Source of the DNA: a virus
Lineage: Duplodnaviria > Heunggongvirae > Uroviricota > Caudoviricetes
Virus record (IMG/VR): IMGVR_UViG_2541047904_000002
DNA length: 5,278 bases
Reading direction: 5' to 3' (one strand)
Shown here: positions 388-5,278 of the stretch, one piece after another
How the letters are laid out: each line of letters starts with the position of its first letter
How positions within the stretch are numbered: position 1 is the first letter of the stretch
Notes under the pieces: model-generated
The model's input: only the letters and a program-made list of their open reading frames with translations
Database searches by the model: none
What the model was told of the DNA's origin: nothing
Made by a program: the position numbers and the translations under genes

Positions 388-803
388 GTTTTGCCCTGAA
401 ACTGGCGCGAGAGATGGGGCGACCTGACTGGCGCGCCATGCTTGCCGGGATGTCATCCACGGAGTATGCCGACTGGCACCGCTTTTACAGTACCCATTAT
501 TTTCATGATGTTCTGCTGGATATGCACTTTTCCGGGCTGACGTACACTGTGCTCAGCCTGTTTTTCAGCGATCCGGATATGCATCCGCTGGATTTCAGTC
601 TGCTGAACCGGCGTGAGGATGACGAAGAGCCTGAAGATGATGTGCTGATGCAGAAAGCGGCAGGGCTTACCGGAGGCGTCCGCTTTGACCCGGACGGAAA
701 TGAAGTTATCCCCGCTTCCCCGGATATGGCGGGCATGACGGAGGATGACGTAATGCTGATGACAGTATCAGAAGGGATCGCAGGAGGAGTCCGGTATGGC
801 TGA
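369..803 (+). CDS. T: T-frame segment of the G-T fusion tail assembly chaperone; expressed by -1 frameshift from G, not from its own start; ends at TGA 801-803
   Basis: A 144-codon open frame in the -1 frame relative to G, beginning at the codon after the slippery site. No credible independent start: the 'M' at 369 in the ORF track is GTG immediately after the slip site. Translation reads as lambda gpT from memory, with an acidic DDEEPEDD stretch. Confidence 0.88.
   Translation: MFDGELSFALKLAREMGRPDWRAMLAGMSSTEYADWHRFYSTHYFHDVLLDMHFSGLTYTVLSLFFSDPDMHPLDFSLLNRREDDEEPEDDVLMQKAAGLTGGVRFDPDGNEVIPASPDMAGMTEDDVMLMTVSEGIAGGVRYG
782..787 (+). promoter_or_regulatory. Shine-Dalgarno AGGAGG for H, 8 nt upstream of ATG 796
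   Basis: AGGAGG at 782-787, inside the 3' end of the T frame, at appropriate spacing to the H start. Confidence 0.7.
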
Positions 804-3357
804 ACCGGTAGGCGATCTGGTCGTTGATTTGAGTCTGGATGCGGCCAGATTTGACGAGCAGATGGCCAGAGTCAGGCGTCATTTTTCCGGTACGGAAACT
901 GATGCGAAAAAAACAGCGGCAGTCGTTGAACAGTCGCTGAGCCGACAGGCGCTGGCTGCACAGAAAGCGGGGATTTCCGTCGGGCAGTATAAAGCCGCCA
1001 TGCGTATGCTGCCTGCACAGTTCACCGACGTGGCCACGCAGCTTGCAGGCGGGCAAAGCCCGTGGCTGATCCTGCTGCAACAGGGTGGTCAGGTTAAGGA
1101 CTCCTTCGGCGGGATGATCCCCATGTTCAGGGGGCTTGCCGGTGCGATCACCCTGCCGATGGTGGGGGCCACCTCGCTGGCGGTGGCGACCGGTGCGCTG
1201 GCGTATGCCTGGTATCAGGGTAACTCAACCCTGTCCGATTTCAACAAAACGCTGGTCCTTTCCGGCAATCAGGCGGGACTGACGGCAGATCGTATTCTGG
1301 CCCTGTCCAGAGCCGGGCAGGCGGCAGGGCTGACGTTTAACCAGACCAGCGAGTCACTGACGGCGCTGGTGAATGCCGGTGTGCGTGGTGGTGAGCAGTT
1401 TGAGGCGATCAGCCAGAGTGTGGCGCGTTTCTCCTCTGCATCCGGCGTGGAGGTGGACAAGGTCGCTGAAGCCTTCGGGAAGCTGACCACAGACCCGACG
1501 TCGGGGCTGACAGCGATGGCACGCCAGTTCCATAACGTAACGGCGGAGCAGATTGCGTATGTTGCTCAGTTGCAGCGTTCCGGCGATGAAGCCGGGGCAT
1601 TGCAGGCGGCGAACGAGGCCGCAACGAAAGGGTTTGATGACCAGACCCGCCGCCTGAAAGAGAACATGGGCACGCTGGAAACCTGGGCAGACAGGACAGC
1701 ACGGGCATTCAAATCCATGTGGGATGCGGTGCTGGATATTGGTCGTCCTGATACCGCTCAGGAGATGCTGATTAAGGCAGAGGCTGCGTTTAAGAAAGCG
1801 GACGACATCTGGAATCTGCGCAAGGATGATTATTTTGTTAACGATGAAGCGCGGGCGCGTTACTGGGATGATCGTGAAAAGGCCCGTCTTGCGCTTGAAG
1901 CCGCCCGAAAGAAGGCTGAACAGCAGAGTCAACAGGACAAAAATGCGCAGCAGCAGAGCGATACCGAAGCATCACGGCTGAAATATACCGAAGAGGCGCA
2001 GAAGGCTTACGAACGCCTGCAGACGCCGCTGGAGAAATATACCGCCCGTCAGGAAGAACTGAACAAGGCACTGAAAGACGGGAAAATCCTGCAGGCAGAT
2101 TACAACACGCTGATGGCGGCGGCGAAAAAGGATTATGAAGCGACGCTGAAAAAGCCGAAACAGTCCGGCGTGAAGGTGTCTGCGGGCGATCGTCAGGAAG
2201 ACAGTGCTCATGCTGCCCTGCTGACGCTTCAGGCTGAACTCCGGACGCTGGAGAAGCATGCCGGAGCAAATGAGAAAATCAGCCAGCAGCGCCGGGATTT
2301 GTGGAAGGCGGAGAGTCAGTTCGCGGTACTGGAGGAGGCGGCGCAACGTCGCCAGCTGTCTGCACAGGAGAAATCCCTGCTGGCGCATAAAGATGAGACG
2401 CTGGAGTACAAACGCCAGCTGGCTGCACTTGGCGACAAGGTTACGTATCAGGAGCGCCTGAACGCGCTGGCGCAGCAGGCGGATAAATTCGCACAGCAGC
2501 AACGGGCAAAACGGGCCGCTATTGATGCGAAAAGCCGGGGGCTGACTGACCGGCAGGCAGAACGGGAAGCCACGGAACAGCGCCTGAAGGAACAGTATGG
2601 CGATAATCCTCTGGCGCTGAATAACGTCATGTCAGAGCAGAAAAAGACCTGGGCGGCTGAAGACCTGCTTCGCGGGAACTGGATGGCAGGCCTGAAGTCC
2701 GGCTGGAGTGAGTGGGAAGAGAGTGCCACGGACAGTATGTCGCAGGTTAAAAGTGCTGCCACGCAGACCTTTGATGGTATTGCGCAGAATATGGCGGCGA
2801 TGCTGACCGGCAGTGAACAGAACTGGCGCAGCTTCACCCGTTCCGTGCTGTCCATGATGACAGAAATTCTGCTTAAGCAGGCAATGGTGGGGATTGTCGG
2901 GAGTATCGGCAGCGCTATTGGCGGGGCTGTTGGTGGCGGCGCATCCGCGTCAGGCGGTACAGCCATTCAGGCCGCTGCGGCGAAACTCCATTTTGCAACC
3001 GGAGGATTTACGGGAACCGGCGGCAAATATGAGCCAGCGGGGATTGTTCACCGTGGTGAATTTGTCTTCACGAAGGAGGCAACCAGCCGGATTGGCGTGG
3101 GAAATCTCTACCGGCTGATGCGCGGCTATGCCACCGGCGGTTATGTCGGTGGCACCGGAAGTCCGGCGCAAATGCGGCGTTCAGAGGGTATCAGGTTTGA
3201 GCAGAACAACAACGTGGTGATTCAGAACGACGGTACGAATGGTCTGCCAGGTCCACAGATGATGAAGGCGGTGTATGACATGGCCCGCAAGGGTGCCCGT
3301 GATGAAATTCAGGCACAGATGCGCGATGGTGGTCTGTTCTCCGGAGGTGAACGATGA
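796..3357 (+). CDS. H: Tail tape measure protein H, 853 aa
   Basis: A 2562-nt ORF that overlaps the T stop by 8 nt (ATGGCTGA). The protein has a hydrophobic N-proximal segment (about aa 104-140), a long A/E/K/Q/R-rich central region typical of an extended helix (about aa 320-600), and a Gly/Ala-rich hydrophobic segment (about aa 683-742). Length and sequence read as lambda gpH from memory. Confidence 0.97.
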   Translation: MAEPVGDLVVDLSLDAARFDEQMARVRRHFSGTETDAKKTAAVVEQSLSRQALAAQKAGISVGQYKAAMRMLPAQFTDVATQLAGGQSPWLILLQQGGQVKDSFGGMIPMFRGLAGAITLPMVGATSLAVATGALAYAWYQGNSTLSDFNKTLVLSGNQAGLTADRILALSRAGQAAGLTFNQTSESLTALVNAGVRGGEQFEAISQSVARFSSASGVEVDKVAEAFGKLTTDPTSGLTAMARQFHNVTAEQIAYVAQLQRSGDEAGALQAANEAATKGFDDQTRRLKENMGTLETWADRTARAFKSMWDAVLDIGRPDTAQEMLIKAEAAFKKADDIWNLRKDDYFVNDEARARYWDDREKARLALEAARKKAEQQSQQDKNAQQQSDTEASRLKYTEEAQKAYERLQTPLEKYTARQEELNKALKDGKILQADYNTLMAAAKKDYEATLKKPKQSGVKVSAGDRQEDSAHAALLTLQAELRTLEKHAGANEKISQQRRDLWKAESQFAVLEEAAQRRQLSAQEKSLLAHKDETLEYKRQLAALGDKVTYQERLNALAQQADKFAQQQRAKRAAIDAKSRGLTDRQAEREATEQRLKEQYGDNPLALNNVMSEQKKTWAAEDLLRGNWMAGLKSGWSEWEESATDSMSQVKSAATQTFDGIAQNMAAMLTGSEQNWRSFTRSVLSMMTEILLKQAMVGIVGSIGSAIGGAVGGGASASGGTAIQAAAAKLHFATGGFTGTGGKYEPAGIVHRGEFVFTKEATSRIGVGNLYRLMRGYATGGYVGGTGSPAQMRRSEGIRFEQNNNVVIQNDGTNGLPGPQMMKAVYDMARKGARDEIQAQMRDGGLFSGGER
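3343..3347 (+). promoter_or_regulatory. Shine-Dalgarno GGAGG for M, 6 nt upstream of ATG 3354
   Basis: GGAGG at 3343-3347 within the last codons of H. The M start overlaps the H stop as ATGA. Confidence 0.7.
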
Positions 3358-3683
3358 AGACCTTCCGCTGGAAAGTGAAACCCGGTATGGATGTGGCTTC
3401 GGCCCCTTCCGTCAGGAAAGTGCGCTTTGGTGATGGCTGTTCCCAGCGAGCGCCTGCCGGGCTGAATGCCAACCTGAAAACGTACAGCGTGACGCTTTCT
3501 GTCCCCCGTGAGGAGGCCACGGTACTGGAGTCGTTTCTGGCTGAGCACGGGGGCTGGAAGGCCTTTCTGTGGACGCCGCCTTATGGGTACCGGCAGATAA
3601 AGGTGACCTGCGCAAAATGGTCGTCGCGGGTCAGTATGCTGCGTGTTGAGTTCAGCGCAGAGTTTGAACAGGTGGTGAACTGA
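3354..3683 (+). CDS. M: Minor tail (tail tip assembly) protein M, 109 aa
   Basis: ORF with ATGA start/stop overlap with H and TGATG stop/start overlap with L. The 109-aa translation reads as lambda gpM from memory. Confidence 0.93.
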   Translation: MKTFRWKVKPGMDVASAPSVRKVRFGDGCSQRAPAGLNANLKTYSVTLSVPREEATVLESFLAEHGGWKAFLWTPPYGYRQIKVTCAKWSSRVSMLRVEFSAEFEQVVN

Positions 3684-4381
3684 TGCAGGATATCCGGCAG
3701 GAAACATTGAATGAATGCACCCGTGCGGAGCAGTCGGCCAGCGTGGTGCTCTGGGAAATCGATCTGACAGAGGTCGGTGGAGAACGTTATTTTTTCTGTA
3801 ATGAGCAGAACGAAAAAGGTGAGCCGGTCACCTGGCAGGGGCGACAGTATCAGCCGTATCCCATTCAGGGGAGTAGTTTTGAACTGAATGGCAAAGGCAC
3901 CAGTACGCGCCCCACGCTGACGGTTTCTAACCTGTACGGTATGGTCACCGGGATGGTGGAAGATCTGCAGAGTCTGGTCGGCGGAACGGTGGTCAGGCGT
4001 AAGGTTTACGCCCGTTTTCTGGATGCGGTGAACTTCGTCAACGGAAACAGCGACGCCGATCCGGAGCAGGAGGTGATCAGCCGCTGGCGCATCGAGCAGT
4101 GCAGCGAACTGAGTGCGGTCAGTGCCTCCTTTGTACTGTCCACACCGACGGAAACGGATGGTGCCGTTTTTCCGGGGCGCATCATGCTGGCTAATACCTG
4201 CACCTGGACCTATCGCGGTGATGAGTGCGGTTATCACGGTCCGGCGGTCGCGGATGAATATGATCAGCCGACTTCCGATATCACGAAGGATAAATGCAGC
4301 AAATGCCTGAGCGGCTGTAAGTTTCGCAATAACGTCGGCAACTTTGGCGGCTTCCTTTCCATTAACAAACTTTCGCAGTAA
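3683..4381 (+). CDS. L: Minor tail (tail tip) protein L, 232 aa, with C-terminal cysteine cluster
   Basis: ORF starting at the ATG that overlaps the M stop by 1 nt. Translation reads as lambda gpL from memory. Cysteines at residues 173, 182, 205, 208 and 212 cluster in the C-terminal 60 residues. Confidence 0.95.
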   Translation: MQDIRQETLNECTRAEQSASVVLWEIDLTEVGGERYFFCNEQNEKGEPVTWQGRQYQPYPIQGSSFELNGKGTSTRPTLTVSNLYGMVTGMVEDLQSLVGGTVVRRKVYARFLDAVNFVNGNSDADPEQEVISRWRIEQCSELSAVSASFVLSTPTETDGAVFPGRIMLANTCTWTYRGDECGYHGPAVADEYDQPTSDITKDKCSKCLSGCKFRNNVGNFGGFLSINKLSQ

Positions 4382-4386
4382 ATCCC

Positions 4387-5130
4387 ATGACAGAGACAGA
4401 ATCAGCGATTCTGGCGCATGCCCGGCGATGTGCGCCAGCGGAGTCGTGCGGCTTCGTGGTGAGAGCGCCGGAGGGGGAAAGATATTTTCCCTGCGTGAAT
4501 ATCTCCGGTGAGCCGGAGGCGTATTTCCGGATGGCTCCGGAGGACTGGCTGCAGGCAGAGATGCAGGGTGAGATTGTGGCGCTGGTCCACAGTCATCCCG
4601 GTGGTCTGCCCTGGCTGAGTGAGGCCGACCGGCGGCTGCAGGTGCAGAGTGATTTGCCGTGGTGGCTGGTCTGCCGGGGGGCGATTCATAAGTTCCGCTG
4701 TGTGCCGCATCTCACCGGGCGGCGCTTTGAGCACGGGGTGACGGACTGTTACACGCTGTTCCGGGACGCTTACCATCTGGCGGGGATTGAGATGCCGGAC
4801 TTTCATCGTGAGGATGACTGGTGGCGTAACGGCCAGAATCTCTATCTTGATAATCTGGAGGCCACAGGGCTGTATCAGGTGCCGTTGTCAGCGGCGCAGC
4901 CGGGCGATGTGCTGCTGTGCTGCTTTGGTTCATCGGTGCCGAATCATGCCGCTATTTACTGTGGTGACGGCGAGCTGCTGCACCATATTCCTGAACAACT
5001 GAGTAAACGAGAGAGGTATACCGACAAATGGCAGCGACGCACACACTCCCTCTGGCGTCACCGGGCATGGCGCGCATCTGCCTTTACGGGGATTTACAAC
5101 GATTTGGCCGCCGCATCGACCTTCGTGTGA
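4387..5130 (+). CDS. K: Tail tip assembly protein K, 247-aa long form: N-terminal JAB/MPN (JAMM) domain plus C-terminal NlpC/P60 domain. Alternative in-frame start at 4531 would give 199 aa.
   Basis: ORF begins 5 nt after the L stop. A complete JAMM motif is visible: E19 in ESCGF, then H68-S-H70-x7-S78-x2-D81 (HSHPGGLPWLSEAD). NlpC/P60-like residues are C121 in DCYTLF and H187 and H199 in GDVLLCCFGSSVPNHAAIYCGDGELLHH. No obvious Shine-Dalgarno precedes 4387, whereas GGAGG at 4515-4519 precedes the in-frame ATG at 4531. Confidence 0.88.
   Translation: MTETESAILAHARRCAPAESCGFVVRAPEGERYFPCVNISGEPEAYFRMAPEDWLQAEMQGEIVALVHSHPGGLPWLSEADRRLQVQSDLPWWLVCRGAIHKFRCVPHLTGRRFEHGVTDCYTLFRDAYHLAGIEMPDFHREDDWWRNGQNLYLDNLEATGLYQVPLSAAQPGDVLLCCFGSSVPNHAAIYCGDGELLHHIPEQLSKRERYTDKWQRRTHSLWRHRAWRASAFTGIYNDLAAASTFV
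4515..4519 (+). promoter_or_regulatory. Internal Shine-Dalgarno-like GGAGG 11 nt upstream of in-frame ATG 4531 within K
   Basis: GGAGG at 4515-4519. ATG 4531 corresponds to Met49 of the long K frame and, as I recall, to the start used in the classical 199-aa lambda K annotation. Confidence 0.45.
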
Positions 5131-5278
5131 AAACGGGGGCTGAAGCCATCCGCGCACTGGCCACACAGCTCCCGGTGTTTCGTCAGAAACTGAGCGACGG
5201 CTGGTATCAGGTACGGATTGCCGGGCGGGACGTCAGCACGTCCGGGTTAACGGCGCAGTTACATGAGACTCTGCCTGA
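5028..5278 (+). CDS. I: Tail assembly protein I, 3'-partial (first 83 codons; runs off the window end), N-terminal ubiquitin-like beta-grasp region
   Basis: ATG at 5028 in the -1 frame relative to K, open to the window end. It is absent from the ORF track only because no stop falls inside the window. Translation MAATHTLPLASPGMARICLYGDLQRFGRRIDLRVKTGAEAIRALATQLP... reads as lambda gpI from memory. GAGAGG at 5011-5016 is a plausible Shine-Dalgarno. Confidence 0.85.
   Translation, partial: MAATHTLPLASPGMARICLYGDLQRFGRRIDLRVKTGAEAIRALATQLPVFRQKLSDGWYQVRIAGRDVSTSGLTAQLHETLP

Follow-up and report, generated by a model that had tools for sequence, protein, structure and literature searches.

Genes K and I of lambda-type phages, which encode a protease with a JAB domain and a protein with an N-terminal ubiquitin-like domain, respectively, overlap out of frame, and this arrangement raises the question of how much of the overlap is constrained as two proteins and what, if anything, it does for the pair. 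We addressed this question in a window of 5,278 nucleotides (nt) of caudoviricete DNA (the whole stretch analyzed; IMG/VR record IMGVR_UViG_2541047904_000002), which very probably contains the junction of K and I in a lambda-type operon for tail-tip assembly, a confidence that applies jointly to the whole explanation set out below. The original prediction described a K gene that ends at 5130, an I gene that begins at 5028 in the -1 frame of K, and a 103-nt overlap. These boundaries and frames were all recovered, with the overlap spanning K codons 214-247, and the conclusion drawn from them, that the last 34 codons of K are dual-coding, stands in part: only the last ~61 nt (5067-5127) are constrained in both frames, and 5028-5066 behaves like K-only sequence.

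The identity of the locus follows from several comparisons. Over the 979 bases around the junction, identity is 100% to Escherichia phage ev017 and 97% to many isolates of lambda, and K itself gives the same values (100% with ev017, 97% with lambda-type phages). The list of open reading frames (ORFs) gives the lambda-type order of tail genes, namely, the end of G/T, H, M, L, K, and the start of I; J comes after I in the annotation of the parent phage, and Pfam confirmed M, L, K, and I. Compared with lambda K/I (gpK/gpI; TAPK/TAPI of Iyer, Burroughs and Aravind 2006), the genes, their order, the 103-nt -1 overlap (in the lambda RefSeq record, from the start of I at 14773 to the end of K at 14875), the domains, and the motifs are common to both, with about 97% identity for K and about 99% for I; apart from the source of the window, phage ev017 (Jouyvirus), there is essentially no difference from lambda.

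K has the make-up of TAPK, with two Pfam domains and intact JAMM (E...HxH...S..D) and Cys-His-His residues. The JAB peptidase domain previously ascribed to K was found with E = 4e-14 and the NlpC/P60 domain with E = 6e-13; the previously given JAMM positions H68, H70, and D81 are correct for the 247-residue protein, and the residues of both sites listed in Table 1 are conserved in 14 diverse K homologs, down to about 30% identity. By sequence, an uncharacterized protein in the PDB (2kks_A) also matched K, over residues 7-105, where the Pfam JAB match lies. An AlphaFold2 (AF2) model of K from the single sequence was unusable, with a mean predicted local distance difference test (pLDDT) score of 33.9.

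Table 1. Features of the K/I junction and of the rest of the window. Divergence is the mean pairwise value among ev017, one Stx-type phage, and two Citrobacter prophages; aa, amino acids.
Feature	Position	Strand	Evidence and remarks
Gene K, tail tip assembly protease	4387..5130	+	247 aa plus stop; ORF list; PHROG phrog_30, minor tail protein
JAB/JAMM metalloprotease domain of K (aa 4-98)	4396..4680	+	Pfam PF14464 Prok-JAB, 52.8 bits; E19, H68, H70, S78, D81
NlpC/P60 papain-like peptidase domain of K (aa 111-224)	4717..5058	+	Pfam PF00877, 49.2 bits, full profile 1-105; C121, H187, H199
Shine-Dalgarno-like GAGAGAGGT for I	5008..5017	+	within K codons for KRERY; anti-Shine-Dalgarno duplex -9.3 kcal/mol
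K/I overlap	5028..5130	+	103 nt; K codons 214-247; I codons 1-34 plus one base; I in the -1 frame of K
I codons 1-13 (MAATHTLPLASPG), N-terminal extension of the lambda clade	5028..5066	+	evolves as a passenger of the K frame
Doubly constrained stretch, I aa 14-33 (beta1-beta2, MARICLYGDLQRFGRRIDLR) over K tail aa 227-247	5067..5127	+	alternative start ATG 5067
Ubiquitin-like (beta-grasp, MoaD/SAMP-like) domain of I	5067..5278	+	Pfam PF06805, 75.6 bits, aa 14-82; ends at window end, residue 83
GTG as I start in RefSeq NC_049948 (4-nt GTGA overlap)	5127..5129	+	no Shine-Dalgarno; would delete conserved beta1-beta2
Divergence, K-only	4900-5027		K third positions 0.38, I third positions 0.00
Divergence, I aa 1-13	5028-5066		K third positions 0.40, I third positions 0.08
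Divergence, I aa 14-33 and K aa 227-247	5067-5127		K third positions 0.21, I third positions 0.12
Divergence, I-only	5131-5276		K third positions 0.24, I third positions 0.48
Gene H	796-3357		ORF list
Gene M	3354-3683		ORF list; confirmed by Pfam
Gene L	3683-4381		ORF list; confirmed by Pfam

In a -1 overlap, the third codon positions of K are the first positions of I, and the third positions of I are the second positions of K. Dual coding was judged from counts of variable sites in these position classes, not from a formal model of nonsynonymous to synonymous substitution ratios (dN/dS) for overlapping genes. Across 5028-5066, the pattern is indistinguishable from that of K-only sequence (Table 1), and K residues 214-226 are identical between clades at 11-12 of 13 positions compared with only 7-9 of 13 for I residues 1-13. 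This 13-residue extension is not found in other I subfamilies; its codons ride on synonymous sites of K, and nothing but the ATG is constrained on behalf of I. Across 5067-5127, variation at I third positions is suppressed about four-fold and that at K third positions about two-fold (Fisher p for variable sites = 0.0015 and 0.005, respectively). The same double suppression recurs independently in the mEp013-like clade, where the overlap comprises 58 nt from the equivalent of Met14 (p = 5e-6 and 0.003). By these counts, the signature of purifying selection in both frames is present in 5067-5127 and in the mEp013-like overlap and absent from 5028-5066. The overlap would then consist of two layers: one in which the K frame extends about 21 codons beyond its conserved domain, across the codons for beta1-beta2 of I, with both frames constrained, and a second, specific to the lambda clade, in which the start of I appears to have moved 13 codons further upstream into K, with only the K frame constrained.

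The tail of K encoded in the doubly constrained stretch lies past the end of the Pfam domain (residue 224). Beyond the clades that carry the overlap, K homologs terminate roughly 5-15 residues past the RH[RK] motif, and their tblastn alignments with K reach no further than about residue 226. No RNA structure was found that might underlie the conservation, the overlap folding less stably than shuffled sequence (z-score +1.94), and because variation is doubly suppressed without such a structure, the K tail is probably functional, judging from the substitution pattern. Tentatively, K residues 227-247 (...SAFTGIYNDLAAASTFV) could represent a functional peptide that is overprinted on the beta1-beta2 codons of I and that might serve as a docking element for I or the tip complex. 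An alternative explanation is that the low synonymous variation in 5067-5127 stems from a constraint at the nucleotide level or on translation initiation, such as an unstructured 5' end of I, and that the K tail is functionless read-through. The weak folding of the region fits selection for accessibility, the tail is entirely missing in K homologs of other clades, and, on our own reading of the codons, the conserved L..RFGR motif that I encodes in the other frame can account for part of the conservation seen in the tail (its IYxD motif); some of the conservation of the tail is necessarily induced in this way. However, the about four-fold suppression at I third (that is, K second) positions occurred independently in two clades and includes codons 14-33, well away from 5028, and the K tail and the I segment that it overlaps are conserved to a similar degree (76-81% and 75-80% identity, respectively), which makes this alternative somewhat unlikely.

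The extent of the overlap depends on the start codon of I. The I frame is open from 5007 (TAA 5004-5006 closes it upstream) to codon 83 at the window end and contains three in-frame start candidates, ATG 5028, ATG 5067 (Met14), and GTG 5127, all of which are used in public annotation; the equivalent of 5028 is annotated in phage 21 and lambda. Four observations favor ATG 5028, which is very probably the start of I. First, anti-Shine-Dalgarno pairing upstream of 5028 reaches -9.3 kcal/mol, compared with -2.5 at ATG 5067 and -1.5 at GTG 5127 and with -10.8 and -7.2 for the starts of M and L in the window; the element is kept in the Stx and Citrobacter clades, and the phage 21 annotation marks a ribosome-binding site at the equivalent of 5013-5017. 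Second, in the sister clade of Stx phages and E. albertii, codon 14 is CTG, and the equivalent of 5028 is the only ATG, GTG, or TTG in the open frame. Third, an ATG lies exactly 103 nt before the K stop (TGA 5128-5130 in the window) in all 112 lambda-clade loci with usable sequence (63 unique). Fourth, the stretch 5028-5066 includes 13 third positions of K codons, and variation occurs at 10 of them. The G of Trp TGG, which has no synonymous alternative, accounts for two of the three that do not vary, and the remaining one is A5028, the A of the I start codon, where a change to G would keep K unchanged but turn the ATG of I into GTG.

Translation from Met14, alone or together with 5028, would reduce the overlap to 64 nt and leave codons 1-13 outside the protein. 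In its favor, Met14 or a position a few residues away marks the beginning of the Pfam domain and of all distant I homologs, codons 1-13 are under no separate constraint, the mEp013-like prophages start I at the Met14 equivalent, and NCBI holds thousands of E. coli prophage copies as 200-residue proteins starting there (clusters P0213 and P0229). Nevertheless, ATG 5067 has no Shine-Dalgarno sequence, codon 14 is CTG in the Stx/E. albertii clade, where the upstream ATG is the sole start, and A5028 is the only invariant free synonymous site of K in 5028-5066. We therefore consider this reading improbable, and Met14 may be a secondary start of a gene that begins at 5028. A start at GTG 5127, which would abolish the long overlap in favor of the four-base arrangement usual in phages and which is annotated in RefSeq NC_049948 and in line with the 190 residues given for gpI in a 2020 review (PMC7291167), is hardly credible, being without a Shine-Dalgarno sequence, cutting off 20 residues (ICLYGDLQRFGRR...) that make up beta1-beta2 and show conservation in each of the I subfamilies, and lying downstream of the point, 5067, to which the I-frame selection signature reaches. 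The ev017 record is thus probably misannotated.

The RefSeq starts differ between the two phages such that one partner of the pair is shortened in each. In lambda (NC_001416), K starts at 14276, which corresponds to window position 4531 and Met49, yielding a protein of 199 residues that lacks the JAMM Glu19; in ev017, I comprises 190 residues and lacks beta1-beta2 of the ubiquitin-like domain. The 2020 review took gpI as 190 and gpK as 199 residues and saw only a partial motif because the proteins were analyzed at these lengths (PMC7291167).

A different route to joint expression would be a K-I polyprotein made by programmed -1 ribosomal frameshifting in the overlap, as with G and T at 363-369, the fusion then processing itself. 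I lies exactly in the -1 frame of K and is open from 5007, and fused K-I and JAB-I ORFs exist (P0056, P0203, P0220, and P0221; phrog_28576 and phrog_35166), as Iyer et al. also noted (PMC1779556). Yet 5000-5130 contains no X_XXY_YYZ heptamer in any frame, the sole homopolymer run being GGGG at 5088, and no stable downstream RNA structure (the region being less structured than shuffled sequence, with the z-score given above), and I has its own Shine-Dalgarno sequence and ATG, so that frameshifting is highly improbable. The natural fusions were considered as evidence for a polyprotein and rejected: their junctions differ, and they are N-truncated singletons that resemble indel damage. P0203 carries a second frameshift, and the HCF1 fusion comes from a record flagged UNVERIFIED_ASMBLY.

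Single-ORF K-I, JAB-I, and I-J fusions in databases comprise, besides those named above, phrog_31 and a locus in our set (L154, 2381-3397). In the E. coli fusion ORFs, the junctions fall at various points, equivalent to about 5013 to 5045, and these ORFs look like indel pseudogenes. A CA repeat, CGCACACACTC, lies inside the overlap at 5040-5049, and the P0056 and P0221 fusions change frame in or beside it; this repeat may be a small indel hotspot. The small K-I and JAB-I fusion families in PHROGs fit the idea of a pro-domain cleaved in cis but do not speak for recoding in the window. At the other end of the window, GGGAAAG at 363-369 is the known -1 frameshift heptamer of lambda G/GT, situated at the overlap between the G ORF (1-387) and the T-frame ORF (369-803); a second GGGAAAG, at 4475, does not lie in the K frame, and chance alone could yield two matches. 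Like Rz/Rz1 (embedded, out of frame) and G/GT (-1 frameshift) in lambda late operons, K/I is a case of same-strand, out-of-frame dual coding in a compact operon. In contrast to both, it is a terminal overlap of two independently initiated genes, neither embedded nor a frameshift product.

The Pfam family Lambda_tail_I/TAPI matched I from residue 14, well above the cut-off (23.8 bits). The window holds only residues 1-83 of I, the last strand (beta5) and the PRxAGAKSGG motif (P92, G96, G101) lying beyond it, and AF2 was accordingly run on full-length lambda I (P0228, 99% identical to ev017 I) with a 34-sequence alignment that spans the lambda-like and HK97/N15-like subfamilies. This alignment was built by two profile searches; a protein search with the 83-residue fragment of I had given mostly fragments from close relatives. 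The model contains strands at 15-19, 29-32, 60-64, and 87-92 and a helix at 37-47, a beta-beta-alpha-beta...beta topology, with 10-residue block means of pLDDT of 58-75 over residues 11-90 and the remainder poorly determined. In a Foldseek search against the PDB, the top matches were all beta-grasp proteins (SAMP1, MoaD, Urm1, ubiquitin, SUMO, and ThiS), with probability up to 1.0 and target-normalized template modeling scores of 0.6-0.76. The prediction that the N-terminus of I is a ubiquitin-like beta-grasp domain is thus supported by modeling, at moderate confidence. Beyond the window, P92, G96, K98, and G101 in the motif that follows the domain are invariant in 34 diverse I proteins, and in the parent phage (L096, 2229-2897) a hydrophobic Gly-rich linker and the TAPI-C plug domain come next. 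The C-terminal domain matches lambda gpI in PDB 8iyk (E = 7e-82). PDB 9l9p, the tail tip of phage T1, was uninformative on the N-terminal domain.

The central part of I, from about codon 67 to codon 147 (window position 5227 onward; L096 ~2428-2670), shows only about 40-65% nucleotide identity in many loci that are at least 95% identical across K and both ends of I. This cassette covers the second half of the ubiquitin-like domain and the hydrophobic linker and includes an indel of ~10 residues, which suggests, from the pattern of identity, two allelic forms exchanged by recombination. The K/I boundary itself was considered as a recombination junction and rejected, the divergent cassette lying inside I. 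In Burkholderia phage vB_FKKS2 (L088, 1905-1945), the open frame for the ubiquitin-like domain of the I homolog contains no ATG, GTG, or TTG; a strong GAGGAGG is followed 6 nt later by an ATA that overlaps the K stop (A-TAG), which is either a non-canonical start or a sequence error, and the record starts I 110 nt downstream, inside the domain.

The functional link between the two proteins has a literature of its own, and Iyer, Burroughs and Aravind had been cited correctly for it. These authors described K as combining JAB with NlpC/P60 and tail assembly protein I as bearing a ubiquitin-like domain, proposed that K frees the ubiquitin-like domain at its C-terminal glycine, and also noted fusions (PMC1779556). 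An October 2025 bacteriophage conference report on the work of A. Davidson states that gpK cuts the ubiquitin-like domain off gpI after I engages the tip (PMC12908700). In the cryogenic electron microscopy (cryo-EM) structures of lambda and Ur-lambda, only gpI residues 134/135-223 are resolved, forming a trimeric plug that holds the C-terminus of the tape measure protein, and gpK is absent from virions (PMC10721106, PMC12617516). The cryo-EM data, and mass-spectrometry data as well, fit K-dependent removal of the ubiquitin-like domain.

Taken together with the window, these reports suggest the following model. In it, K is a protease with two domains (JAB/JAMM and NlpC/P60) that is not part of the virion. 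Translation of I begins from a Shine-Dalgarno sequence of its own and ATG 5028, inside the end of the NlpC/P60 domain of K, and I would be a precursor in three parts, a 13-residue leader, a MoaD/SAMP-like domain (about residues 14-95) ending in PRxAGAKSGG, and a hydrophobic linker that leads into the C-terminal plug domain, which sits in the lumen of the tail tip. After I becomes part of the tip complex, K would remove the ubiquitin-like domain, as the conference report also has it, and this domain would therefore serve as a removable pro-domain or an assembly checkpoint rather than a conjugated modifier.

Several points weigh against this account. Cleavage of I by K rests on a conference summary, no primary paper having been found in the literature searched. 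The confidence of the AF2 model over residues 11-90 is only moderate, and the Foldseek E-values are modest (5e-4 and weaker). The preference for Met1 over Met14 comes from sequence comparison, and the function of the K tail is read only from suppressed synonymous variation, to which selection on the first codons of I could contribute.

Known systems help to place the K/I pair. Conjugation systems combine E1, E2, a ubiquitin-like protein, and a deubiquitinase, for example, Bil and type II cyclic oligonucleotide-based antiphage signaling systems (CBASS) with Cap2/Cap3; at the K/I locus, no E1 or E2 domain turned up when M, L, K, and I were scanned with Pfam, nor do the other genes carry one in their annotations. 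The closer parallel is with ubiquitin-fusion precursors and with JAMM enzymes that act with SAMP/MoaD proteins (such as Rpn11-type enzymes with archaeal ubiquitin), in which a beta-grasp domain ending in small Gly residues lies upstream of fused cargo and is released by a JAMM-type metalloprotease, release by K being both inferred and reported for K/I. Unlike those systems, K/I shows no E1 or E2 at the locus and no evidence of conjugation, the ubiquitin-like domain would be a pro-domain in cis, and K also bears an NlpC/P60 domain. In the F-type pyocin, the gpK-like PA0639 is, according to a preprint, needed and absent from particles, and PA0640 is a gpI-like plug protein; the F-type pyocin is a tailocin, not a phage, and the preprint leaves the responsible protease unshown.

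What the overlap does for the pair can be judged from its distribution. In annotated and recomputed junctions, the 103-nt overlap is confined to a clade of lambda, Stx, Citrobacter, and Salmonella phages and prophages, and the Salmonella and Providencia I proteins have an N-terminal extension as in the lambda clade. The mEp013-like prophages have 58 nt (58-73 nt when Morganella is included), and HK97/N15-like, T1-like, and SSU5-like phages have 1-29 nt (LAU1, HK225, K50, Rogue1, and SSU5). Pseudomonas BR52a and Bordetella PHB09 have no overlap at all, a gap of 460-750 nt with other ORFs lying between the two genes. Adjacency of K and I is common, but the long overlap, across the junctions compared, is local and not essential to the system. 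Because the long overlap is clade-specific, the earlier claim that it enforces co-inheritance found no support. The companion claim, that it probably couples expression, is likewise not supported: I has its own Shine-Dalgarno sequence and starts 103 nt upstream of the K stop, which is not an arrangement for termination-reinitiation. The ATG of K at 4387 has no Shine-Dalgarno sequence (anti-Shine-Dalgarno duplex +0.7 kcal/mol) and lies 5 nt past the L stop codon (window 4379-4389), which suggests low-level synthesis of K through reinitiation by ribosomes that have finished L.

Near-identical lambda K/I DNA was also found on short contigs assigned to unrelated taxa, including Neobacillus, Pseudoxanthomonas, Shewanella, Chromatium, Kitasatospora, Bradyrhizobium, and others (L097-L109, L116, L119, L122, L123, L127, L129-L134, L148, and L150-L152). 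Many of these contigs have names that indicate about 1x coverage, and this DNA is almost certainly lambda contamination of sequencing libraries.

The JAB/ubiquitin-like pairing is already known, having been predicted in 2006, and the locus presents nothing new in kind. The practical additions are the best-supported start of I, the recognition that the long overlap is clade-specific, and the shortening of both partners in RefSeq, which keeps automated analysis from seeing the pairing and has already left its mark on one published study of the domains. If the K tail is indeed a docking element, the recognition tail of a protease and the first hairpin of its substrate would be written in the same 61 nt and forced to co-evolve. 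In lambda-type phages, a ubiquitin-like pro-domain together with a JAB protease would serve the virus as a checkpoint in assembly, which, according to the 2025 meeting report, has been shown experimentally.

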